Shown one piece after another: positions 4,318-38,331 of a DNA stretch of 64,000 nucleotides. The stretch is from a virus (Duplodnaviria; Caudoviricetes). The position numbers and the translations under genes were made by a program. The stretch covers positions 22,751 to 86,750 of the IMG/VR virus record IMGVR_UViG_3300031998_000045; one strand, 5' to 3'. The notes beneath the pieces are model-generated. The model did not search any database and was not told the origin of the DNA. It saw nothing but the letters and a program-made list of their open reading frames with translations. Numbering within the stretch: position 1 is the stretch's first letter; the number at the start of each line of letters is the position of its first letter.

Positions 4318-4371
4318 AAGACACGTGTGTTTGGTGATTTTCAAGATCAATAAGTCTGCTGCAAGTGTCTT
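4318..4371 (-). ncRNA. Stem/CAGCA RNA copy E1 with Ser(UGA)-like anticodon loop
   Basis: AAGACAC-TTGCAGCAG...TGAT-CTTGAAA-ATCA...GTGTCTT. Confidence 0.7.
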
Positions 4372-4696
4372 AAAGGCCGAGTGTTTTTCATGTGCCGGCT
4401 CCATCACAGAGACTGTGCTTGCGGAGACACCCGACAGAAGATGAGCTCAACACTGCGCGCCAGTGGAACTCCCACACTCAAACTTCCTGCAAGATTCAAT
4501 TAAAGGAAAAACAAAAATGAAAAATGAAAGTGATGTTGCTAGCCGATGTGATGTGAATATGGTGAGCCGCATTGTGGAACCCAGCACTTTGTTGCTAGAT
4601 GAGATACGCTCATCAGCTTATCGTGCCAGCTAGATGCTTCAAGCACGGCTCTTACCTGAAGCCATTTCTCTCTGTACGCGTCTAGAGGAAATTGAC

Positions 4697-4746
4697 AAGA
4701 CTCATTTTGTTTCATTCCGTAAATGATAGTCTGCTGCATGAGTCTT
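4697..4746 (-). ncRNA. Stem/CAGCA RNA copy E2 with Arg(ACG)-like anticodon loop
   Basis: AAGACTCAT-GCAGCAG...TCAT-TTACGGA-ATGA...ATGAGTCTT. Confidence 0.7.
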
Positions 4747-5794
4747 AAAATGATGTAAATTCAAATTCTTCATAAAACTATTTATTTTTGTTCAACTATA
4801 CAAAATCATAAAAACGATTAAAATGTTTTTGAACATATATATCTTGCTTGCATGGTTTTGGAGACAACTAATCTTTAATAATATATAATGACCAGCCAGC
4901 TTTTAGTATCTCATTTCGTTTTATATTATCCCTATTCTAAATAGCTTTCAATGATGATCGTCTATCATTTGATATCTATTTATAATGCCATGGACCATTC
5001 CATTGTATAGCAATTTTTTCATCTACTATTAAAACATCCACATCCCATCCATTAAAAATAGGACTATTATGCTCAACATGTTTAAATGATGATTTGCATA
5101 AGTTATAAAATTTTATTTCACATTTTGATCGTCTTTGTTCATTCTATTTTGCAATTGATCGTCTTCCAGCCAAAGAAAGCTTCTATTTAGTTTCCTATGA
5201 CATAAATTCATTTCGATGTGTTTTTACATACTATTTGCATTCAAATGAGCAACAACTGCTTTTATCAACATCTAAAAACCATTTTTTACATTTTATACAT
5301 TGTTTAAATCTATAGACTTTATTCTAAGAACGAGCATTCATATGACTTTTTATTTTAACAACAATATATTTTTTATTAGTTGTTTGTTGTTTTTTAATTG
5401 TTTGTTGTTTTTTAAGTAACTATGGTTTATGTGAACGTCCTAATCCATTTGCGCAACTTCTTGAACAAAATCGTCTTATATATTTTTTACCTTTTAAAAC
5501 TTTTTCATATTCATAATCTGTCAAATCTAACTGATACGGCTTTTTACAAATAGGATTTTCACATATAAATGTACGTGGTTTTCGTGTTAATTCACGCTAT
5601 ATTTTTTCATGAGTAAGCTTTTCAGCATGTTTTCGATTCATTATTAAAGAACCGCGTTTCTATGCTGCAATATTTGCTTCTCTTTTAGGATTGCATTTAC
5701 ATGTTCTCATATGCGCAGTTGCAATTCCTGCCATTCGAAATGAACCATCGGTTTCAAATTCTTTTCCACAATATTTACAATGTATTATTTTCAT
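4745..5794 (-). CDS. Zn-finger + PD-(D/E)XK-type (DUF559/Vsr-like) putative homing endonuclease, 349 aa, code 15 only
   Basis: Absent from ORF track. 1050-nt frame from ATG 5794 to TAA 4745 with about 13 in-frame TAG and no TAA/TGA; N-terminal CKYCGKEF; C-terminal GWDVDVLIVDEKIAIQWNGPWHY; AT-rich; GTAAATA upstream. Confidence 0.8.
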
Positions 5795-5833
5795 ATTTTT
5801 TATTTACATTGTTAGCGGATATTTAAATCGAAT

Positions 5834-5913
5834 TGCGGACGGTCGAGTTGCACGACTAGGTTTCCCAGAAAGCGTATGAGACTTTCTACGCTGCTCCGCG
5901 TTGTTTCATCCGC
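5834..5913 (-). ncRNA. Degenerate tRNA-like RNA with CAU anticodon
   Basis: Acceptor GCGGATG/CGTCCGC, D-like ACGC-GGAGCA-GCGT, AGAAAG/CTTTCT stem around CTCATAC, GG-GAAA-CC variable arm, GTCG-TGCAACT-CGAC T arm; no encoded CCA. Confidence 0.55.
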
Positions 5914-5939
5914 CATAAAATTCTTCAAAGACCAAATGC

Positions 5940-5998
5940 AAGACGCGTGTTGGGTTTAAGATTAACTGTCTTATCCAAGCAGCTGCTGTGTGCGTCTT
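5940..5998 (-). ncRNA. Stem/CAGCA RNA copy E3 with Asn(GUU)-like anticodon loop
   Basis: AAGACGC-ACACAGCAG...TAAGA-CAGTTAA-TCTTA...GCGTCTT. Confidence 0.7.
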
Positions 5999-6069
5999 AA
6001 AGCTGGATGCTCATCGGCTTCCACCGCTTCACATATATTATTATACCGCATTTGAAATGCAATTAAACT

Positions 6070-6795
6070 TCATGACATCAAAATGTATGTGTAGTCTTTT
6101 GTCACTTCAACAATAAATACATCATCTGATTTGACAGCATCATACATCATTTTCATTCTTCGGCATAGGTCATCATACTCAGCTTTCTTTTTCTGAGTTA
6201 GATCTAGCTTAGTCTGCTCATTTTCATCCATGAAATCTTCCTCTTTGAAAAATTTGAATTTTATTCTATCTGGCTGATATGTAGAGACTATCATTCCAGC
6301 ATTGATGATGATCTTCATCCATTCATTGAAATAGTCTCCATGCACATCATATTCACCAATCATCTGACGAGTGCCAACTAATTTAACAGTGTGGTCTTTC
6401 ATTTTAGAAATTGGTCCGTATAACATGTCAAATTCATGGATCATTTCATGGCATATGACATTCACCATTGAAACCATAGAATCATATTTCACTTCTCTTA
6501 TGATCTTTATCAAAGGAACTATTTTTCCTGTAGCATTGTCAACTTTGAATCCAATTGCTCCCTTTGCAATTTCATTAGTTCTGTCAATTATGCGAATTTC
6601 AACATCAGTAATCAACTTTGACTCAAAGATGACTTCATTCACTATTTCATATATAGCTTTTAGATCAGCTTCATTTGCAGAATACTCTGATGCTTCATCA
6701 GACAGCTTAGATCCAAATCTGTCATAAAGAGCTTTTCTCAATGGAAAATCTGACAACTTTTCACTAATAGCATTCATATATAAAATATACTTCAA
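6070..6795 (-). CDS. SprT-like zinc metalloprotease
   Basis: ICHEMIH (HExxH) plus downstream HGDYF motif; true start may be the second Met. Confidence 0.7.
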   Translation of the reverse strand: MKYILYMNAISEKLSDFPLRKALYDRFGSKLSDEASEYSANEADLKAIYEIVNEVIFESKLITDVEIRIIDRTNEIAKGAIGFKVDNATGKIVPLIKIIREVKYDSMVSMVNVICHEMIHEFDMLYGPISKMKDHTVKLVGTRQMIGEYDVHGDYFNEWMKIIINAGMIVSTYQPDRIKFKFFKEEDFMDENEQTKLDLTQKKKAEYDDLCRRMKMMYDAVKSDDVFIVEVTKDYTYILMS

Positions 6796-6800
6796 ATGAA

Positions 6801-7162
6801 TGGACGTGGGGAGAGTCGAACTCCCGTCTTGCTCAGTCTTTCATGCACCTTGTTCACATGCTTATGCTCTGCTTAGTTTCTCTCTGCTGCAGCAAGAGCA
6901 ATGACTCGCAGGAGATCTTGTGGAAATGACTGACCTCAAGCGCTTCCACATCTTGAGGACGTTCCGCCAAGTGATGATGCAGCTTCCGGTACCAGCGGAC
7001 GGTCTCCCAGAGCTGCAGGTTGTCTTACAGATCGCTTAGATCAAGCAGCCATAGCGTAGTCATACTCGCCATTTAGTTGTTTGCTTGGTTTTGAAGTGGA
7101 CTAAGCTCCACTGCATGCATAGACACACAATTGATTCTGCCAATCGATACCGTGTCACGCCC
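6801..7162 (-). ncRNA. ssrA: Phage-encoded tmRNA
   Basis: 5' GGGCGTG pairs with 3' CACGTCC-A (G3.U70), T arm GGGAGTTCGACTCTCC, 362 nt, internal tag frame ...GGC GAG TAT GAC TAC GCT ATG GCT GCT TGA (GEYDYAMAA). Confidence 0.9.
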
Positions 7163-7172
7163 TTGAAGTTGA

Positions 7173-7247
7173 TGGCGTCTCCAAGTGGAGTTGAACCACT
7201 CTTGCAAGTATGAAAAACTTGAGTCCTAGCCGATAGACGATGGAGAC
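7173..7247 (-). tRNA. tRNA-Glu(UUC)
   Basis: Cloverleaf GTCTCCA/TGGAGAC, loop TTTTCAT, CCA end. Confidence 0.9.
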
Positions 7248-7261
7248 ATCTTGAAATTGTC

Positions 7262-7337
7262 TGGTCACGGTGACAAGACTTGCACTTGCATGCCACTGCT
7301 TAAAAGGCAGTTGCTAACCTATTTTAGCTACACCGTG
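7262..7337 (-). tRNA. tRNA-Lys(UUU)
   Basis: CACGGTG/CACCGTG, loop CTTTTAA, T loop TGCAAGT, CCA end. Confidence 0.9.
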
Positions 7338-7341
7338 AAAT

Positions 7342-7418
7342 TGGTACCAGTGATGGGATTCGAACCCATACTGAAGTGATTTTGAGTCACGTGCCTCCTG
7401 CCTTTGGGCTACACTGGC
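7342..7418 (-). tRNA. tRNA-Leu(CAA), short variable arm
   Basis: GCCAGTG/CACTGGT, loop CTCAAAA, TTCGAAT, CCA end. Confidence 0.85.
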
Positions 7419-7424
7419 ATTGAC

Positions 7425-7484
7425 AAGACGCGTTTAGCTTGTATTCATTATCAGTGAATTGCTTTAGATTGCTGTGTGCGTCTT
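7425..7484 (-). ncRNA. Stem/CAGCA RNA copy E4 with Ile(GAU) anticodon loop
   Basis: AAGACGC-ACACAGCAA...ATTCA-CTGATAA-TGAAT...GCGTCTT; the loop is the canonical Ile loop. Confidence 0.75.
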
Positions 7485-7494
7485 CAAGAAGAAA

Positions 7495-7569
7495 TGGAGC
7501 CCGCAGAGAATTCCGAGATCTCAACCTGCTGCTTACAAGGCAGCCGCTCTGCCGTTGAGCTATACGGGC
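7495..7569 (-). tRNA. tRNA-Thr(UGU), atypical T loop
   Basis: GCCCGTA/TGCGGGC, loop CTTGTAA, T arm GAGA-TCTCGGAAT-TCTC, CCA end. Confidence 0.8.
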
Positions 7570-7584
7570 GCTTCATTTGAAAAT

Positions 7585-7673
7585 CGGAGAGAGGAAGATT
7601 CGAACTTCCGGGCCACATAGCTGCAGCCAACTCCTTAGCAAGGAGCCTCTTTAGACCGCTCAGACATCTCTCC
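7585..7673 (-). tRNA. tRNA-Ser(GCU)
   Basis: GGAGAGA/TCTCTCC, loop TTGCTAA, long variable arm, G73. Confidence 0.9.
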
Positions 7674-7679
7674 AAGAAC

Positions 7680-7768
7680 TGGCGGATGCGAGAAGATTCG
7701 AACTTCTGTGCCCTTTCAGGCAAACGGTGTTCAAGACCGCCCCGTTATGACCTCTTCGGTACGCATCC
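7680..7768 (-). tRNA. tRNA-Ser(UGA)
   Basis: GGATGCG/CGCATCC, loop CTTGAAC, long variable arm, GCCA end. Confidence 0.9.
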
Positions 7769-7779
7769 AGTCAAAAGAC

Positions 7780-7901
7780 TTGAAGCTAGGGATCCTCAGC
7801 GTATAGGCATGCCCGACGGGGATAACCGAGCTACGGCTACAAAGATTCCCTCCATGCTGTGGAGAACCCGTGCTGCTACCATGTTCAGCTGCTAGCTTCA
7901 A
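7780..7901 (-). ncRNA. Candidate structured RNA displaying CAGCA in loops
   Basis: 10-bp closing stem TTGAAGCTAG/CTAGCTTCAA; internal GCTG-AACATGGTAG-CAGC and CTCC-ACAGCAT-GGAG hairpins. Confidence 0.5.
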
Positions 7902-7909
7902 AAATAGAC

Positions 7910-7973
7910 AAGACTCATTGTGCTTGTTCTCCGAATATGGTGGGGAATAAGCTGATGCTGCTGTTTGAGTCTT
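7910..7973 (-). ncRNA. Stem/CAGCA RNA copy E5 (anticodon-like loop ambiguous, possibly CAU)
   Basis: AAGACTCA-AACAGCAG...GCTT..TTCCCC-ACCATAT-TCGGAGAA..AAGC...TGAGTCTT. Confidence 0.65.
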
Positions 7974-7997
7974 AAAATATCAAAATGGGCAATTGAC

Positions 7998-8957
7998 TTA
8001 AATTCGTTTTTCAAAAATTTTCTCAAGCTATCTGACAACATTATTTTTAGGACGAATTCGTATTGTCATATAACCGTGCTTTAATGCAATTTCGTCTTTT
8101 TGTTTATCTCTACTATTTCCTTCAGAATGCCAGTATTCACCGTCAATTTCAATAAATAATTTCTCTGAAGGAATATAAAAATCAACAAATCGTTTCATTT
8201 CATTAAAGCAAAATTCTTTTTGATGCTCAAATATGATTTTATGCTCAGTCAACCAATCAAATGCAACCTGTTCAGGATATGTCATTTTCTTTTTATTGCC
8301 AGCAAGTTTCCTGTTTGGATGTTTTTCTGGATGATCATGATACAGCTATTTCTTCTTTTCAGATACTTCTTTACGTTTCTCTATTGTCCAATATTTTGAA
8401 CAACATCTATTGACAATAGTACCATTAGCTATTTTAGTTTTCATTGTTTTTGAAACAGAAAGAGCATTTCTCATAATACGTTCATCTGTTTCTTTCGTCA
8501 AGCCTTTGTTCCAAGAAGTTCTTTTTTGAATCGGATGAATCTAATGATTATGCTCAAACAACTAAGCTCTAGTTTCAAATATCAAGTTGCATTGTTTACA
8601 TTGCCATGTTCCTCTTGGAGCTCTAGCTTTAAGATGTTGTTCATGAATATTCATCTATTTTCTAGATCTTCTTTTTTTGCTTATCTCAGCAAAGTCATTC
8701 TACTAAGCAGAATAAGATCTTCTACATGAATCAGAGCAAAATCTTCCAGTTCCATAGCTTCCATCATGTTCTTTGTTGCATTTAGGATTTTCACATTTGA
8801 ACATTCCATTTGGAAGTCTTCTAGCTTCTTTCTTCAAAAGATCATCTTTTTGCTTTTTTGACTTATATTGCTTATAACTTTTGCAAGTTCTTTTATGACC
8901 CTAAAGAGAACGGCCATTGTCAAATTCTTTTCCACATGTACATTTATAAATTTTCAT
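7998..8957 (-). CDS. Zn-finger/NUMOD-like + DUF559-type putative homing endonuclease, 319 aa, code 15 only
   Basis: Extends track ORF 8028-8285. 960-nt frame with 8 TAG; C2H2-like WQCKQCNLIFETRA*LFEHNH*IH, WNKGLTKETD motif, FVDFYIPSEKLFIEIDGEYWH nuclease. Confidence 0.85.
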
Positions 8958-8998
8958 ATTCTTATTTACTCAAGTGCATTACCAAACTCATCTAAAAT

Positions 8999-9077
8999 TG
9001 GTCAGGGCGAGCCGTGCTGCCCGGCTACCTATGGGACCCAAACCCATCGTGCAGAAATGCTGCTATACCACGCCCTG
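8999..9077 (-). ncRNA. tRNA-Pro(UGG)-derived RNA with rewritten D and T loops
   Basis: CAGGGCG/CGCCCTG-A-CCA acceptor, ATGGG-TTTGGGT-CCCAT anticodon arm, but D region GCAG-CATTT-CTGC and T loop GGCAGCA (no GG, no TTC). Confidence 0.7.
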
Positions 9078-9089
9078 TAAAATAAAAGC

Positions 9090-9202
9090 AAGACACATTT
9101 TTACGTGCTCTACCAGCTGAGCTACGAGATCTAAGATCTCGGCAAGATTCGAACTTGCGACCCCGAGCTTACCAGGCTTGAAAATACTGCTGTGTGTGTC
9201 TT
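9090..9202 (-). ncRNA. Stem/CAGCA RNA copy E6 enclosing a circularly permuted tRNA-Thr(GGU)
   Basis: AAGACAC-ACACAGCAG-...CAAGC-CTGGTAA-GCTCG-GGGTC-GCAAG-TTCGAAT-CTTGC-CGAGATC-TTA-GATCTCG-TA-GCTC-AGCTGGTA-GAGC-A...GTGTCTT. Confidence 0.8.
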
Positions 9203-9210
9203 GAAGAATC

Positions 9211-9300
9211 TTTGACTGCTGAAACCGCTCACTCATAAGTTTTCCGAGCCTCCTGTTAAGTAAGGCTCAGGTTGGATTCGAACCAATAGCAGCAGTCAAA
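9211..9300 (-). ncRNA. Second permuted tRNA-like (YrlA-like topology) RNA
   Basis: Closing stem TTTGACTGCTG/CAGCAGTCAAA around T arm TTGG-TTCGAAT-CCAA, closed hairpin CTGAGCCT/AGGCTCGG and D-like GAGTGAGCGGTTT. Confidence 0.55.
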
Positions 9301-9319
9301 AAATGAACAATGAAAATAA

Positions 9320-9404
9320 TGGTGGACCCGAAGAGAATCGAACTCTCACGCGAAACCGCACTGCTTGCAAAGCAGCTCCAATCACCACACTCTGACACGG
9401 GCCC
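9320..9404 (-). tRNA. tRNA-Ala(UGC) with long variable arm
   Basis: GGGCCCG/CGGGTCC gives G3.U70, loop TTTGCAA, extra arm GCGGTTTCGCG, TTCGATT, ACCA end. Confidence 0.75.
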
Positions 9405-9420
9405 ATAAAGCCAATAAAAC

Positions 9421-9467
9421 TAGATGCCAATTTTATTCTACAGATACAAACCTGCTGTAAGCATCTA
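9421..9467 (-). ncRNA. Stem/CAGCA RNA copy E7 with Tyr(GUA)-like anticodon loop
   Basis: TAGATGC-TTACAGCAG-GTTTG-TAT-CTGTAGA-ATA-AAATTG-GCATCTA. Confidence 0.65.
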
Positions 9468-9593
9468 AAAAAAGAAACTGTCAATTGTCAAAGATCAAAC
9501 ATTTATTTACATCGTGTGAGTCAAATCCCAAGCAACGGTCTTCATTCCCTTAAACATGTATACATTATACCACATTAAAGTGAATTCTTAAAC

Positions 9594-9797
9594 TCAAAGC
9601 TCATCTGGACAGAAGCCGGTTATCCGAGTCTCATTCAGCATCCGGCTCTCTTGTATCTTCAGAGACATGTAGTTGCACAGCTCTTCATTGAAAGCTCGCC
9701 GGATAGACTTTGGAACACATGAAGCAACTCGCTTCTCAGCACGTATGATCTTTGCCCGGAGCTTTTCAAGATCAGTCTTGTCTTCATTCTTCTTCAT
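9594..9797 (-). CDS. Hypothetical protein
   Basis: ORF with GGAGA RBS. Confidence 0.65.
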   Translation of the reverse strand: MKKNEDKTDLEKLRAKIIRAEKRVASCVPKSIRRAFNEELCNYMSLKIQESRMLNETRITGFCPDEL

Positions 9798-10296
9798 GGC
9801 GCTTCTCCTAGATGCTGTTGTCTGAGATCTTCTTTGAAAGACTGATCAAGCTCTCAGAAAGCTCTACTATCTTGATGTAGGTGTCCATCCAAGGGCTGAG
9901 TGTCTGACTTGAAGTGTTCTGTGTCTCTTCCTGCTCAGGCTTCTGCTTCGGAGCTTCAGCTGTCTCTGCATTCTCCTTCAAGATCTTGTACTGTCCGTTC
10001 CAGCGCTTCCACCATCCAGACTCGTCCAGCTTCTTGCAGTAGTCTTCACCCTTCTTGGTGAGATGCTTCCATCCAGCATACTCCCTTGACTCGCTTGCTG
10101 GCACAGCATAGATGAGTCCGTCTTTCTTAAGGCGGTACACAATGTTGCTGATCCGCTTGCTGGCTCGCTTTGAGCCAAGAGCATCTACCATCTCAGGCCA
10201 GTCGTCAGTGAATCCGCCAGGCGGCACCATGCATGGATGTCCACCTGCGTAGTAGTCAAGCATGAGCAGCTCATTCTTCATTGTCAAGTCATTCAT
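9784..10296 (-). CDS. Putative winged-helix DNA-binding protein
   Basis: SNIVYRLKKDGLI...HLTKKG pattern; TAG at 9808 read through to TGA 9784 under code 15. Confidence 0.5.
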
Positions 10297-10309
10297 CTTC
10301 TGTCTCCTT

Positions 10310-10672
10310 TTACTTTATCACAGGTGCTTCTGACTTCAGCTTTGGGCTCTTCTCCTTGACAACGTACTGTCCCTTGTTCTCACGAAGAGACTTGTCAAGA
10401 ATGTCATTGAAGCGAAGATTGGGGATCTTCTTCTCAAGTGGAAGAGTCCAGTCACGGTCACTTAGATCTGAGAACCAGGCAGATGGATTCTTCTTGCCCC
10501 AGCTGCTGTCTGTAGACCTGTCTACATAGTTTGGATCAATGTGCACTTTGGGATTGACTTTGTCTGCACAGTCACCAGGCTTCACCAGCTGGTTGACTAT
10601 CTCATCATGCTTGCGCCTGAATGTCTCATCACGCTTAGCTTCAATCTCATCATTGTCAGTCGATCTGATCAT
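10310..10672 (-). CDS. Hypothetical protein
   Basis: Track ORF with RBS, in operon. Confidence 0.65.
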   Translation of the reverse strand: MIRSTDNDEIEAKRDETFRRKHDEIVNQLVKPGDCADKVNPKVHIDPNYVDRSTDSSWGKKNPSAWFSDLSDRDWTLPLEKKIPNLRFNDILDKSLRENKGQYVVKEKSPKLKSEAPVIK

Positions 10673-10710
10673 GTTCAGCTTCTTTCTCTTTGTTGTAGTT
10701 GTCGGTAGTC

Positions 10711-10878
10711 TTAAGCAGTCTTGCTAGATGTCAGCTGAGCTAGTCTTGCTGGAATGACCTTGTTCCGGTTGCAGTCATCACAGCATTCACCGCTGGCTTT
10801 GACAGGAGCTGGGTTGTTTCCCCAGCCATAGAACTTCTTGCTGCAGATGCAGCATGTCTTGCATGGTCTTTCAGTCAT
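10711..10878 (-). CDS. Small Cys-rich (zinc-binding) phage protein, 55 aa
   Basis: Below track cutoff; CCICSKKFYGWGNNPAP...CCDDCN...VIPARL; RBS and promoter box upstream. Confidence 0.7.
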   Translation of the reverse strand: MTERPCKTCCICSKKFYGWGNNPAPVKASGECCDDCNRNKVIPARLAQLTSSKTA

Positions 10879-10967
10879 AGCTTTCTTTTCTCCTTTACGC
10901 TATAGATTGTATCAAAAGCTTGATGGTTCAGCCACTTAAGAAGCTAACTGACTTCAGCTTCTTGAAC

Positions 10968-11207
10968 TTATGTGAACAATTTAGTCTTCTCGATCTTGTG
11001 AATGTAGACATGCGGCGAAAGTGTCATCTTGCTGGCGAAGATTGCTGCAGCTTCAAATGCTGTCTTAGCTCTAATCGCCATAGCTGATGAATAATGCAAG
11101 TCAAATGTCACTTTGATGTGAGCTTCATCTGTGTTATCTATAGATGCGCCTAGCACATATGTGACTAGCCACATTGAATCTTCTTCTTTCTTCTTGAACG
11201 GCCACAT
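10968..11207 (-). CDS. Hypothetical protein (MWPFK start)
   Basis: ATG 11207 after AGGAGA; the 3' end is duplicated at 22878-22961. Confidence 0.65.
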   Translation of the reverse strand: MWPFKKKEEDSMWLVTYVLGASIDNTDEAHIKVTFDLHYSSAMAIRAKTAFEAAAIFASKMTLSPHVYIHKIEKTKLFT

Positions 11208-13190: not shown

Positions 13191-13659
13191 TGCTCTCTCC
13201 GGTCTGGATTCCATCACCCTCTACAGCAGACTTCAAGACAGACATCACATTGTCAACCATTGACAGAGACTTTCTGTTGCAACGCAGCAAGTAGAATCCA
13301 GCGTAAGATGACAGAGCATAGCTCATGACAATGAACACATTTGCTATGTCAGTCCAGCCATAGTGCTGAAGAGCTATGTATATGCCGAACACGAACAAGA
13401 TGTCTATGACACATGCACATATCATCATCACATCAAACTTGCGGCCATACTCTTCAATAGCTTTGTCAGTTCCAATCTTGTCTGGGTCATGCTCATCAGC
13501 ACGCTGTCTGGCAAGCTCTGCAACGTCATCATAGACACTGTCAGTCGTGTCATTCATCTTGGCAAACTCAAGGAGAGCTTTGCCCATCAGGTCGGCCAAC
13601 GCTCCGAGGAACGTCAGCCAGACCGAAGCTTTCACTAAGAAAGCTTGTATCATACGCAC
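13135..13659 (-). CDS. Putative membrane protein
   Basis: Two to three hydrophobic segments. Confidence 0.6.
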   Translation of the reverse strand: MRMIQAFLVKASVWLTFLGALADLMGKALLEFAKMNDTTDSVYDDVAELARQRADEHDPDKIGTDKAIEEYGRKFDVMMICACVIDILFVFGIYIALQHYGWTDIANVFIVMSYALSSYAGFYLLRCNRKSLSMVDNVMSVLKSAVEGDGIQTGESNEEAESSEDPEDKSKKEE

Positions 13660-15209
13660 TCCTGAAATGCAGCTTCTACCGGCGCATAGCGCTCAGAAGA
13701 GAGCTGGTCAACCAGCGCTTCAAACGGGTCGAGCTTGCTGGACAGAGCCATCTTCAAGACTGAAGGCGAGAAGCCAGACACAAGTGTGCATCCGTTCTCC
13801 ATCTGCTGGACAGGGATGACCGTCCTAGAGTTTGCGCTGATGTTCCACCACGCCATCTTCGGCACAATGTATCCAGCGTTCTTGTACATCTCGGCAATCT
13901 CCCGCATCAGAGTCTTGTCTTCTCCCCAGTCAGTCGTGCCTTGGTCAAAGTGCATGTCACTGAGGATGAGGATTGTCGAAGGCAAGTCTTCCTGCTTGAG
14001 GTTGTTGTTCACAGCCGAGTCGAGGATGAGCTTCATCGTCTTGCGCAAGTCTGTGTTGGCACATTCAGCTTCTGCGTAAGAGAGAGCAAGCTTGTCAGCA
14101 AGAGTCTTGCAGTTGCTCATGTCAATGTACTTCGGCTTGTTGCTGAAGCTGATGTACTTGTCCTTGTACGGTCCAGAGAGCTTCTCACTGGTGTAGATGC
14201 CGAGAGAGAATGCAACATCAATTGCCTGCATTCCGCCTCCACCGACTCCAACTGTCATCGAGCCAGAAGAGTCTACGACGCAGAGCGTCTTCCCAGTGTC
14301 AGAGGATGCATAGTCAGGAAGCGCCTTCCACATCTCCTCAAGGGCTGTGTCAGCCTTGATGTGCAGAGTCCTCCAGTCAAAGTAGTTCTGCTTTGCCGTC
14401 GTCATGTAGCTGTGGACGATGTCGCAGGGGAAAGCTGTTGAAGAGTTTATCTTCACTCCCTCATCCCCGCGGGCCAGAGACTCAAGCCATGCCTGGCGAC
14501 GGGCAGCATCATGCTTTGTGAATGCATTCTTGTACTTGATGTTGGCGAGACTCGGCACAGCATTGTAGTCTACTTCACTCCACTTGTTTGCAGAGATTCC
14601 GACTTCAACTACCTTAGATGCTGCACGCAGCTTTGACAGAGTCTTGCGGTACTGACGCTCAGTCATGCCGAGGTCAGCTGCAATTGTGCGTCCAAGAGCT
14701 TTTGTCTTCGGCGAGCTTGTGCAGACAGAGGGAAGCCACTTCGCAAGAAGCGAGACAGACTTGCCAGCATCTGCAGCTTCAAGGTCAGCTGTCAGCTGAG
14801 CTGCAATGATGTCAAGAGCTTTCTTCCAGAGGTCTCTCTTGAGCTCGGACATCCAGAGATCATCCCAGCGCCCATACTCAGGTGCCAGCTTGAGAAGCTT
14901 CTCAGCGAGCTCTGGCTTCTGACCTGCAAGCCAAGAGAAGCAGATGCGGAAGAGACGCCGCTCTCCCATTCCACCTCTCACGTCACGAGAGAAGAAGAGC
15001 CACTTCACTGCCAGAAGCGGGTCTTCAAAGTATGCTTCTGCAAACTTCTTCTCAATGGTGGTCTCATCTGCCTGCCTCAAGCTTGAGACAGAGAAATTGA
15101 TGTCAAGCAGCGCTTTGCCAGTTGTGGCATGCATCACTGCTCCATTGTCAGACAGAGTCTTCTCATTCTTGAGCTCTGACTTCAATGCTTCTTCGAACTT
15201 GTCATTCAT
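13650..15209 (-). CDS. DUF2828-family TROVE/Ro60-like protein with C-terminal vWA domain (519 aa)
   Basis: RDVRGGMGERRLFR, EYGRWDDLW, AKWLPS, YRKTLSKLR, then vWA MIDAS VVDSSGSM, ILILSDMHFD; start MNDKF after GAAAAGGAA. Confidence 0.85.
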   Translation of the reverse strand: MNDKFEEALKSELKNEKTLSDNGAVMHATTGKALLDINFSVSSLRQADETTIEKKFAEAYFEDPLLAVKWLFFSRDVRGGMGERRLFRICFSWLAGQKPELAEKLLKLAPEYGRWDDLWMSELKRDLWKKALDIIAAQLTADLEAADAGKSVSLLAKWLPSVCTSSPKTKALGRTIAADLGMTERQYRKTLSKLRAASKVVEVGISANKWSEVDYNAVPSLANIKYKNAFTKHDAARRQAWLESLARGDEGVKINSSTAFPCDIVHSYMTTAKQNYFDWRTLHIKADTALEEMWKALPDYASSDTGKTLCVVDSSGSMTVGVGGGGMQAIDVAFSLGIYTSEKLSGPYKDKYISFSNKPKYIDMSNCKTLADKLALSYAEAECANTDLRKTMKLILDSAVNNNLKQEDLPSTILILSDMHFDQGTTDWGEDKTLMREIAEMYKNAGYIVPKMAWWNISANSRTVIPVQQMENGCTLVSGFSPSVLKMALSSKLDPFEALVDQLSSERYAPVEAAFQECV

Positions 15210-15228
15210 CTGCTGTTCCTTTTCTCTT

Positions 15229-15525
15229 TCAGTTGTTGTCCAAAAAGGCTTGTGCTTCTCTCTACTCTTCAATTGGAAGATAGATCTGGCAGCTGTGCAC
15301 TTCAGCGCCAAACTTGTTTGTCAAGATGTTGCAGCAGAAAGTCTCTATTGCATCTTCCACTGTAGTCTTCTTGCTCTTCTTTGCTCCCTCAATGACACCG
15401 TCTGGAATGTTCAATGTCATCTCTTCAGGAAGATTGTAGATCTTTGTCTTCCCTTTTGGATTGCTCCACTTTATGTTGCACACAGTCACCTGCATGCTGT
15501 CCGTCTCATTGTCTATGTTCTGCAT
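15229..15525 (-). CDS. Hypothetical protein
   Basis: Track ORF; TAG at 15262 read through to TGA 15229. Confidence 0.6.
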
Positions 15526-36908: not shown

Positions 36909-37647
36909 GCTTGCTTTTCCTTTTTCGTGGTTGGTGTGCTGTGGGCGCTCTTCCGCGCCTCGCATTATAGATCATATCAAAAAAGCGGCACTTCAGCCAC
37001 TTAAAAAATAAAAATATTTTTCAAGATCTTAAGTGGCTGAAGCTGAATGTTTCAATATAATCAACTGCTGTTGTCTATATATCAAAAATCTACAGCTCAG
37101 CCACTTGAAAAATCATCTTTTTCATAGACTTCTTGAGTGGCTGAACCTAGCTTTGTTTGATATTGTCTAGCCATCTAGCCATAGATGGGCTGGAATGAAC
37201 AGCCAGCCTAGGTTGATGAACTAGGCATTTAAGCCCCAGCTGCCTCTCTCGGGACATCCAGCCATGGTCTGAACATGGACTGGCTAGCTATATAGGTCTA
37301 GCTAGCTAGGTAGATATGGCTAGCTGGAACCTAGCCAGTGGTGGTCTGATGGGCCAGAATTCATCAGAAGCCATCCTAGGTAGTGGCTAAATGGTCTAGC
37401 TGGAATGGCACAGAACCATGGCTAGCCTAGGTTCTGCGACCACCTAGCTTCTGGCAAAACGCGCTATATATAGGGATTTTCTGGAGCGCGGTCTGACTAG
37501 TGCGAGCGTGTTTGTAGACTTTTTGAGAGAAGTGCTTGAGTTTGAGCGAAGTCTTGAGAAGAGAGAGAGATCTTTAAAAGCTTTGAAAGATGTCTTGTGC
37601 AGTAGTCTAGAAAAAGAACTATATGCGTAATGTGTAGAATATGCTAG

Positions 37648-38331
37648 ATGAACAATCCTATTGGATATATTAAGTCAAAATGCTTTGACCAGCTTGTCTG
37701 CAGGCATCTTCTTTCAGCTGAAGCAGAACTTGCATCTAAAGACAATGACTTTGACGGCATAGACATCATATGCGGCAGAGAGAAGATTGACACAAAGTAC
37801 CAGCAGAACAAGAATTCTGACGACTTTATATGGTTTATAACAGGCAGGCAGCATAGAGGCGGCGAGCGTCTGAAGTTCAAGAGCAAAGACGGCTGCAGTC
37901 TAGAGACAGACCGCTTCATGGTGTTCTTCTATGTCAGTCCAGAGAAGATTGAATGGATAGATGTCAGCGCAGCTGAGATCTTAGATGTCTTAGAGAGCGG
38001 CTTAGCTGAGAAAGACAGCTCAAAATGCTATGAAGCAGACAGCAAGAATGTCAAATATGGCAAGAATGGACATGCATGCTATGACATCTTATGCTGGGCT
38101 AAGCTGAGCTGGCTTAGGGATGTGTGTCCAGAAGCTTTCAAAGTGTGCATAGACAAGAAGACAGCTGAGAGCTTTGTGAAAGTCCAGAGATACTTCAATG
38201 AGAAGATTGGCAGCAGTCCTGAGATTGTAGACAAGTTCATTGAATGCATCAACAGCTTTGTAGACAATGGGCAGAGCCTTGAGCTAGTTGTAGACAATGT
38301 CTTAGCAAAGATGTCTTAGCTGAGTGCTTGA
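37648..38331 (+). CDS. Putative PD-(D/E)XK nuclease-like protein
   Basis: DFDGIDII...EKIDTK pattern; TAG 38317 read through to TGA 38331. Confidence 0.5.

Follow-up and report, generated by a model that had tools for sequence, protein, structure and literature searches.

A candidate tRNA-Pro(UGG) with a compensated elbow and a putative deformed tRNA(CAU) relative in the RNA array of a phage

The elbow residues G18, G19, U54, U55, C56, and A58 are, to our knowledge, regarded as near-universal in bacterial-type tRNAs. The canonical T-loop network has been described (Roovers et al. 2021, PMC7912444), and the only natural exception mentioned is an A54-A58 pair, in eukaryotes (PMC7566577, PMC7912444). 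In eukaryotic tRNA-Ala this pair occurs with R15-A48, and such pairs have been seen in neither bacteria nor archaea (Westhof et al. 2020, PMC7566577). A second kind of RNA with a tRNA-like part, YrlA, is found in bacteria and phages close to Ro60 genes (Chen et al. 2014, PMC4201824). Here we describe two tRNA look-alikes on the minus strand of a 64,000-nt stretch of phage DNA (positions 22,751 to 86,750 of IMG/VR record IMGVR_UViG_3300031998_000045, a single contig of 86.7 kb with 45% G+C). This whole stretch is called the window, and all positions refer to it. The Pro-type element (8999-9077) has a UGG anticodon and the Met-type element (5834-5913) a CAU anticodon, and neither carries the canonical elbow set. 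An original prediction, made from the letters of the window, had taken them for members of one system with the nearby DUF2828 gene and a family of hairpins, the E elements. Judging from comparisons with other phage tRNAs, we instead favor, with a probability of about 0.6, a reading in which the Pro-type element would be a compensated-elbow tRNA-Pro(UGG) of a type that recurs among phages, the Met-type element a deformed relative of tRNA(CAU), and the GCAGC in their loops incidental and not a handle.

The Pro-type element was correctly described by the original prediction in every statement about its sequence, namely the Pro-type acceptor stem, the CCA, the UGG arm, and the odd loops. Its acceptor stem has 7 bp and its anticodon and T stems have 5 bp each, and all 17 of these pairs are Watson-Crick. 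C1:G72, U8, A14, and a 4-nt variable loop are present, and A73 is followed by an encoded CCA (9002-8999). The anticodon loop, UUUGGGU, carries UGG at 9040-9038 together with U33 and G37. The T loop at 9021-9015 reads GGCAGCA (G54, G55, C56, A57, G58). The D loop, AGCAGCAUUUCU at 9064-9053, is 12 nt long and contains AG and no GG (A18, G19), and the D stem has four positions with one mismatch, A12-C23. The bacterial prolyl-tRNA synthetase (ProRS) identity set is G35, G36, A73, and G72, and the element carries all four residues. CCA is the commonest proline codon of this phage (41%), and there is no second tRNA with anticodon UGG or CAU in the phage genome. Most tRNAs of this phage have U at anticodon position 34, which implies that A-ending codons are read. 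Both anticodons are also among the most frequent that ARAGORN reports over the other phage loci fetched for comparison and this genome (UGG 31/626, CAU 28/626).

Because no ortholog of either element was found in the accessible collections, analogues were gathered from other loci, which are given L numbers where they need to be told apart. The E-element pattern retrieved 64 IMG/VR loci, most of them belonging to large phages that carry tRNA arrays, and a generic tandem-tRNA pattern supplied a control set of 28 loci. A skeleton scan of the fetched loci and this genome yielded 329 unique phage tRNAs (95 loci). Among these, the D loop holds GG in 301 of the 303 tRNAs with U55. The GG is missing from 14 of the 17 tRNAs with G55, and 13 of those 14 have AG (Fisher p = 7.9e-20). 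All three tRNAs with U56 carry G18-A19, a Watson-Crick covariation of the 19:56 pair. tRNAs of this kind, with the T loop UUUGA and a D-loop GA in place of GG, lie at L069 9380-9449, L070 5314-5385, and L093 7647-7717. The 54:58 pair, tallied over the first 198 unique tRNAs (E-pattern loci and this genome), is U:A in 182, G:G in 8, and A:U in 6. The same elbow rule appears in the independently drawn control set alone and in a model-based alignment of 116 unique hits, and the covariation spans tRNAs of at least a dozen specificities. We defined a variant-elbow class by G55 with A18 and a 54:58 pair of G:G, A:U, or U:A. The Pro-type element falls within it, having G55, AG in place of GG in the D loop, and a retained C56. 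No account of phage tRNAs with elbows of this kind turned up in a full-text literature search aimed at them.

The Pro-type element belongs to a subclass with the T-loop start GGCRG. The constant residues of this subclass are G54-G55-C56-R57-G58-N-A60 and A18-G19, and the anticodons are those of Gly (two phages), Gln, Lys, Ala, Asn, Ser, and, in this genome, Pro. Since both loops vary among members, the word CAGCA is not conserved in the subclass: the T loops are GGCAGCA, GGCAGAA, GGCAGUA, GGCGGCA, GGCGGUA, and GGCGGGA, and the D loops include AACAGUA, ACUAGCA, and GCAUAGAGU as well as others. Two pairs of relatives were informative. Between L028 and L040, the stems of tRNA-Gly(UCC) have undergone about nine double, compensatory changes, while the D loop AACAGUA and the T loop GGCRGCA have stayed constant. 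Within a tRNA-Ala family, UUGG/UUCGA in L005 becomes AUAG/GGCGG in L036, both loops having switched together. As far as sequence can tell, these comparisons indicate selection, not decay. The original prediction had set random T-loop decay against a conserved GCAGCA, and the answer is divided: the loops of the Pro type do not look like random decay, and CAGCA is not conserved in the class. The presence of GCAGC(A) in the loops can be put down to the elbow rule, which gives A18-G19 and G54-G55-C56-A57-G58, together with the frequency of the word in the genome. As side observations, other phages with GGCRG tRNAs also encode an RlaP-family nucleotidyltransferase and DUF2828 beside the array (L028 4509-5555 and 8604-10115; L040 7476-7600), and in L040 a YrlA-like RNA (39 bits) lies about 140 nt upstream of the variant tRNA-Gly.

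The standard finders do poorly on this subclass. Default ARAGORN called none of the seven GGCRG tRNAs with a strict skeleton that were examined, and of six checked with RF00005, two were found and four missed. Phage tRNA complements are therefore probably under-annotated. Default ARAGORN also calls neither look-alike, and RF00005 detects neither at E<=5 on 6 kb, where its gathering threshold of 29 bits is not reached. The failure of tRNA finders that had been expected of noncanonical tRNAs was thus seen for both. The Pro-type element is recovered by other routes. ARAGORN calls Pro(tgg) at its exact ends in mitochondrial mode only. A strict cloverleaf descriptor (7-bp acceptor stem, 5-bp anticodon and T stems, and 7-nt loops, with loop sequence ignored except for U33 and R37) finds seven tRNAs in this genome, including 9003-9077, and gave no hits in five genome shuffles. 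A covariance model, R1, was also used. It was trained on nine tRNAs with variant elbows, all taken from other phages and none from the window, and was run with search filters off. Its best match in the 64-kb window is 9003-9077 (37.9 bits, E 3.3e-10), which scores above the window's canonical Glu, Thr, and Lys tRNAs. Taking these sequence-based results together, the Pro-type element is probably a working tRNA.

The Met-type element is harder to place. The CAU arm, the GGAGCA D loop, and the extra variable region that had been noted in it are all there. It has a 7-bp acceptor stem, A73, no CCA, and the anticodon loop CUCAUAC. The D hairpin, ACGC-GGAGCA-GCGU, is shifted 3 nt toward the 3' side, and the variable region of 12 nt contains GG-GAAA-CC. 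A T stem of 4 bp closes the loop UGCAACU (U54-G55-C56-A57-A58). Its D loop is ambiguous for the GG/AG rule because GGAGCA holds both. The identity elements that can be read from its sequence are CAU and A73, which would suit Met or Ile2. ARAGORN reports a tRNA-Met(cat) here only at an 85% threshold. A relaxed 7/4 descriptor matches the genome only at 5835-5913, and the skeleton by itself is weak evidence, since the same descriptor gave four hits in 20 shuffles (0.2 per shuffled genome). The T loop is identical to that of a class II tRNA-Leu(UAG) in L010 and L040, and in global alignment the element comes closest to a bona fide tRNA-Met of L015 that likewise has A8 and a CGGAG D loop. From its sequence, we put the odds that it is a working tRNA somewhat short of even. 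It would be a deformed tRNA(CAU) relative of uncertain function, either a marginal tRNA or a relic. If a relic, it may have been retained because it still directs processing at the junction of the E RNA on its upstream side and the endonuclease mRNA on its downstream side.

Several observations count against reading the two elements in this way. RF00005 gives 40-49 bits to two other members of the variant-elbow class and no score to the Pro-type element, which, as said above, it does not detect. The 12-nt Pro-type D loop compares with 7-9 nt in the class and has an apparent 5-nt insertion, UUUCU. Its D arm is atypical within the class in two further respects, the A12-C23 mismatch and the lack of an A beside the 3' D stem. 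Compared with a rod-like minimum free energy fold, the cloverleaf is less stable by 9.9 kcal/mol, which is about the 90th percentile of canonical phage tRNAs; a gap as large is thus found in about 10% of them. In the rod-like fold, the two GCAGC segments are paired together. The Met-type element has its 4-bp T stem, a 5-nt connector at positions 8-9, and the 12-nt variable region. R1 does not find it in the 64-kb window at E<=10, and it has no structural analogue among the 95 loci.

Orthologs were also lacking, and this weighs on the same side. Exact and gapped patterns of the anticodon arm and acceptor end of the Pro-type element found none in viral, metagenome, and genome contigs. An anticodon-arm pattern of the Met-type element found none in metagenome contigs, and blastn of both look-alikes against the 64 fetched loci found none either. 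In GenBank phages, only ordinary tRNAs matched the look-alikes. Relatives were also sought through the neighboring proteins: single-protein scans of IMG/VR came back empty, as did an exact look-up of a 241-aa open reading frame (ORF). A 91%-identical homolog of this ORF led to L001, the nearest relative found, with about 70% DNA identity. Its array is rearranged, and both look-alikes are absent from it. Two side observations concern L001. A fragment resembling the 3' end of a transfer-messenger RNA (tmRNA) lies at 7922-8000, just upstream of a SprT-like gene, and this gene is 91% identical to the window copy compared with about 70% for the rest of the contig. The SprT-like gene and the tmRNA end may have moved together.

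If the Pro-type element is a tRNA-Pro(UGG) with a compensated elbow, its gene would be transcribed with the rest of the minus-strand array, from the promoter-like site to the terminator-like hairpin that bound the array (Table 1). RNase P would excise the tRNA, and 3' trimming would proceed to the encoded CCA. The host ProRS could then charge it via G35, G36, A73, and C1:G72, and the charged tRNA would read CCA, the phage's commonest proline codon. G19:C56 is the platform on which RNase P, the ribosome, and T-boxes stack. This outer elbow platform would be retained in the Pro-type element, with A18-G55 substituting for the pair of G18 with pseudouridine (Psi) 55 and G54-G58 substituting for U54-A58. 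The altered T loop would not be able to take m5U54, Psi55, or m1A58 and may evade factors that recognize the T loop in its canonical form.

The strongest rival reading, most of all for the Met-type element, is that both look-alikes are plain tRNA pseudogenes, decaying relics of an older array with no present function. The array may perhaps have been disturbed by the insertion of the AT-rich endonuclease genes next to them. Decay would explain why default ARAGORN and RF00005 call neither element, and it would suit the D-loop insertion, the D-stem mismatch, and the strong competing fold of the Pro-type element. It would also suit the Met-type element, with its deformities, its lack of CCA, a skeleton expected about 0.2 times by chance per genome, and its absence from the R1 results. 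Decay is harder to reconcile with the fully Watson-Crick acceptor, anticodon, and T stems of the Pro-type element, and its T-loop changes and its switch from GG to AG fall on the very elbow positions that covary in functional-looking phage tRNAs. Because the D arm has an insertion and a mismatch, this argument against decay draws on the T loop and the stems. The Met-type element, too, has kept complete pairing in its acceptor, anticodon, and T stems, and its T loop is the same as a variant loop in tRNAs of other phages. We regard decay of both elements as improbable, at well below even odds.

Another possible explanation starts from the genes that follow the look-alikes, and we consider it very improbable. 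Here, the variant T arms would be immunity alleles against homing endonucleases, with the adjacent enzymes cutting canonical T-arm DNA and the D loop changing in compensation. Both look-alikes do lie 40-42 nt upstream of endonuclease-like ORFs, and homologs of the second of these ORFs occur within the tRNA arrays of L051 and L049. However, the tRNAs beside those two homologs have canonical T loops, only one of ten ORFs adjoining variant-elbow tRNAs in other phages is an endonuclease, and no endonuclease gene lies next to the variant Lys and Thr tRNAs of the window. The idea that variant elbows generally go with neighboring homing endonucleases was rejected on the canonical tRNAs of L051 and L049 and the nine of ten neighboring ORFs that are not endonucleases.

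The two ORFs are unusual in their own right. Their G+C contents are 27% (4745-5794) and 31% (7998-8957), compared with 45% for the genome, and each has E elements on both sides (E, tRNA-like element, ORF, E). Jointly they contain 21 in-frame TAG and no in-frame TAA or TGA. With the standard code, TAG is the terminator of eight of the longer minus-strand ORFs, and a CUA tRNA is missing from the genome. The idea that the look-alikes read the 21 in-frame TAG codons was rejected because their anticodons are UGG and CAU and no CUA tRNA is present. A third TAG-rich ORF, 37122-38297, belongs to no family, shows no similarity to other sequences, and probably represents antisense noise.

The least probable reading, by a small step, is the one originally predicted, in which tRNA-shaped RNAs of the system of the Ro-like DUF2828 protein and the E elements would use GCAGC(A) in the elbow loops as a handle for binding protein or RNA. 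In its favor, an E or YrlA-like element directly precedes each look-alike (Table 1), and the DUF2828 gene is 4.5 kb away. DUF2828 is often beside phage tRNA arrays, with a homolog in the flank of 37 of 65 loci (the 64 E-pattern loci and L001) and of 6 of the 28 control loci, and it was found in the fetched flank of seven of eight records with GGCRG-type tRNAs. The word itself is present in the E elements and in 7780-7901, just as had been noted. On the other side, an ordinary tRNA starts 3-25 nt downstream of the E element at 19 of 52 unique E elements of other phages, and adjacency to E elements is therefore no special mark of the look-alikes. DUF2828 commonly adjoins phage tRNA arrays of any kind, and loci with DUF2828 are not significantly enriched in G55 tRNAs (11/151 vs 6/178, p=0.14). 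CAGCA is common throughout the genome, at 2.8-2.9 per kb per strand, and regional enrichment was rejected at 3.5 per kb in 5800-9500, where several of the copies are part of the homologous E motif. The conserved core of E elements in other phages is ACAGCAA and not CAGCAG. The word is also not conserved in the loops of the variant-elbow class, as described above. The loop changes of the look-alikes that had been read as a handle obey the elbow rule at 18:55, 54:58, and 19:56.

The look-alikes were also compared directly with the two RNA families. An E-family test, which looked for the 5' motif and the covarying closing stem, found the motif absent from both 8999-9077 and 5834-5913, and only GCAGC(A) is common to them and the E elements. 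RF02553 matches only 9104-9165 and, weakly, 7284-7399 in 5000-11000, and neither match overlaps a look-alike. The look-alikes have open acceptor ends and anticodon arms and hence do not have the form of Y RNAs. We found no DUF2828 or E-element link to the look-alikes beyond their neighborhood in the array.

The features of the array and its surroundings are collected in Table 1. Besides the look-alikes, the array contains tRNAs for Glu, Lys, a class I "Leu-CAA", Thr, two Ser, and Ala, as well as a SprT-like ORF. The seven other tRNAs of the cluster score 46-54 bits with RF00005. Among them, the tRNA-Lys (54.2 bits) and the tRNA-Thr (50.4 bits) are not called by default ARAGORN.

Table 1. Positions of the two look-alikes and of other features in and near the minus-strand RNA array (window numbering)
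Feature	Position	Strand	Remarks
Promoter-like site	9591-9564	minus	boundary of the array
Second YrlA-like RNA	9211-9300	minus	
YrlA-like element	9090..9202	minus	RF02553 at 9104-9165, 41.5 bits (gathering score 69), E 8.3e-7; ends 12 nt before the Pro-type element
Pro-type element	8999-9077	minus	candidate tRNA-Pro(UGG)
Endonuclease-like ORF	7998..8957	minus	8 in-frame TAG; zinc fingers and DUF559/Vsr-like domain; begins 42 nt after the Pro-type element
tRNA-Thr(UGU)	7498..7569	minus	aberrant T arm: loop CUCGGAA, U-U mismatch in stem
tRNA-Lys(UUU)	7265..7337	minus	T loop UGCAAGU (G55); D loop AAAUAGGU
tmRNA	6798-7162	minus	in the array
Other E hairpins	7424-7488, 7909-7976, 4693-4745, 4318-4372	minus	
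E element	5938..6000	minus	AAGAC-N-CA-M-ACAGCA-R ... GUCUUG; ends 24 nt upstream of the Met-type element
Met-type element	5834-5913	minus	putative deformed tRNA(CAU) relative
Distant paralog of ORF 7998..8957	4745..5794	minus	13 in-frame TAG; begins 40 nt after the Met-type element
Terminator-like hairpin	4301-4278	minus	boundary of the array
DUF2828 and DUF7788 protein	13650..15311	minus	Pfam E 6.7e-33 and 4.3e-39

Several other observations were made on this array. The E hairpin is a widespread phage RNA family, found at 64 IMG/VR loci where about 4 would be expected by our own rough estimate. The stem position N:N' of its pattern, AAGAC-N-CA-M-ACAGCA-R ... N'-GUCUUG, covaries (G:C, A:U, U:A), it often lies directly upstream of a DUF2828 homolog on the same strand (L026, L029, and L030), and no Rfam family matches the E hairpins of the window. 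The tRNA at 9320-9404(-) has the anticodon UGC and G3:U70, the alanine identity, yet also a 12-nt variable arm. At 7342-7418(-) lies a class I tRNA of 77 nt with the anticodon CAA and a short variable loop. It shows about 77-84% identity to annotated "tRNA-Leu" genes of Pseudomonas, Streptomyces, Prochlorococcus, Synechococcus, and Bacillus phages, and CAA tRNAs of 75-79 nt resembling it occur in about 15 other fetched loci. A leucine tRNA without a long arm would be unusual. Finally, 7780-7901(-) is a structured RNA of 122 nt with a closing stem of 9-10 bp, no Rfam match, and a folding z-score of only -1.7.

For the look-alikes, the outcome is chiefly negative: neither the GCAGC handle nor a link to the Ro-like system is supported, and the likeness of their GCAGC to that of the E elements is incidental. 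The original interpretation is partly supported overall and has been largely replaced. A broader idea goes further than the two elements, and we offer it tentatively, at odds closer to those of the pseudogene reading than to even. Phages may encode a hitherto unrecognized class of fully functional tRNAs with compensated elbows (A18-G55; G54-G58 or A54-U58; A19:U56), of which the Pro-type element would be one member. The class would have evolved to be independent of host readers of GTPsiC or to escape their notice. If this is true, the host factors avoided would be defense nucleases directed at the T loop or elbow, TrmA, and TruB, and phage tRNA repertoires would be under-counted since standard finders overlook much of the class. 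The covariation among phage elbows would amount to a natural mutagenesis experiment on the tRNA elbow. Should the rewiring be a means of escaping host nucleases or modification enzymes, the arms race known for the anticodon loop of phage tRNAs would reach the elbow as well.

Among described systems, the A54-A58 pair of eukaryotic tRNA-Ala and initiator tRNA is similar in that the trans Watson-Crick/Hoogsteen pair U54-A58 is replaced and a second tertiary change is coupled to the replacement (PMC7566577, PMC7912444). That exception is confined to eukaryotes and keeps U55 and G18, whereas the phage variants have G54-G58 or A54-U58 with G55/A18 and cover many specificities. YrlA and Y RNAs (RF02553; PMC4201824) also involve tRNA mimicry near the gene of a Ro-type protein, and a YrlA-like RNA is the immediate upstream neighbor of the Pro-type element. 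In YrlA, however, a long Ro-binding terminal stem takes the place of the anticodon arm, the acceptor stem is closed by a loop, and the T loop is canonical and receives Psi55. The look-alikes, in contrast, have open acceptor ends, true anticodon arms, and noncanonical T loops. Animal mitochondrial tRNAs likewise do without the G18-G19/U55-C56 signature, and it is the mitochondrial mode of ARAGORN that finds the Pro-type element. Their elbows are largely lost or idiosyncratic, whereas the phage class keeps G19:C56, compensates the other pairs, and recurs. The tRNA cluster of phage T4, which includes the free-standing endonuclease SegB and the stable RNAs C and D, is alike in combining a tRNA array with homing-endonuclease genes and small stable RNAs of unknown role. 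Unlike the variants in the window, the T4 tRNAs are not known to depart from canonical elbows. A further comparison is with the canonical bacterial and phage tRNA-Pro(UGG) (RF00005). The Pro-type element differs from it in having G54-G55-C56-A57-G58 and not U54-U55-C56-R57-A58 in the T loop, a 12-nt D loop with AG for GG, and an A-C mismatch in the D stem. It shares with it the 7/4/5/5 stems, the 7-nt anticodon loop, U33, G37, C1:G72, A73, CCA, and the 4-nt variable loop, and it sits among bona fide tRNAs on the same strand.

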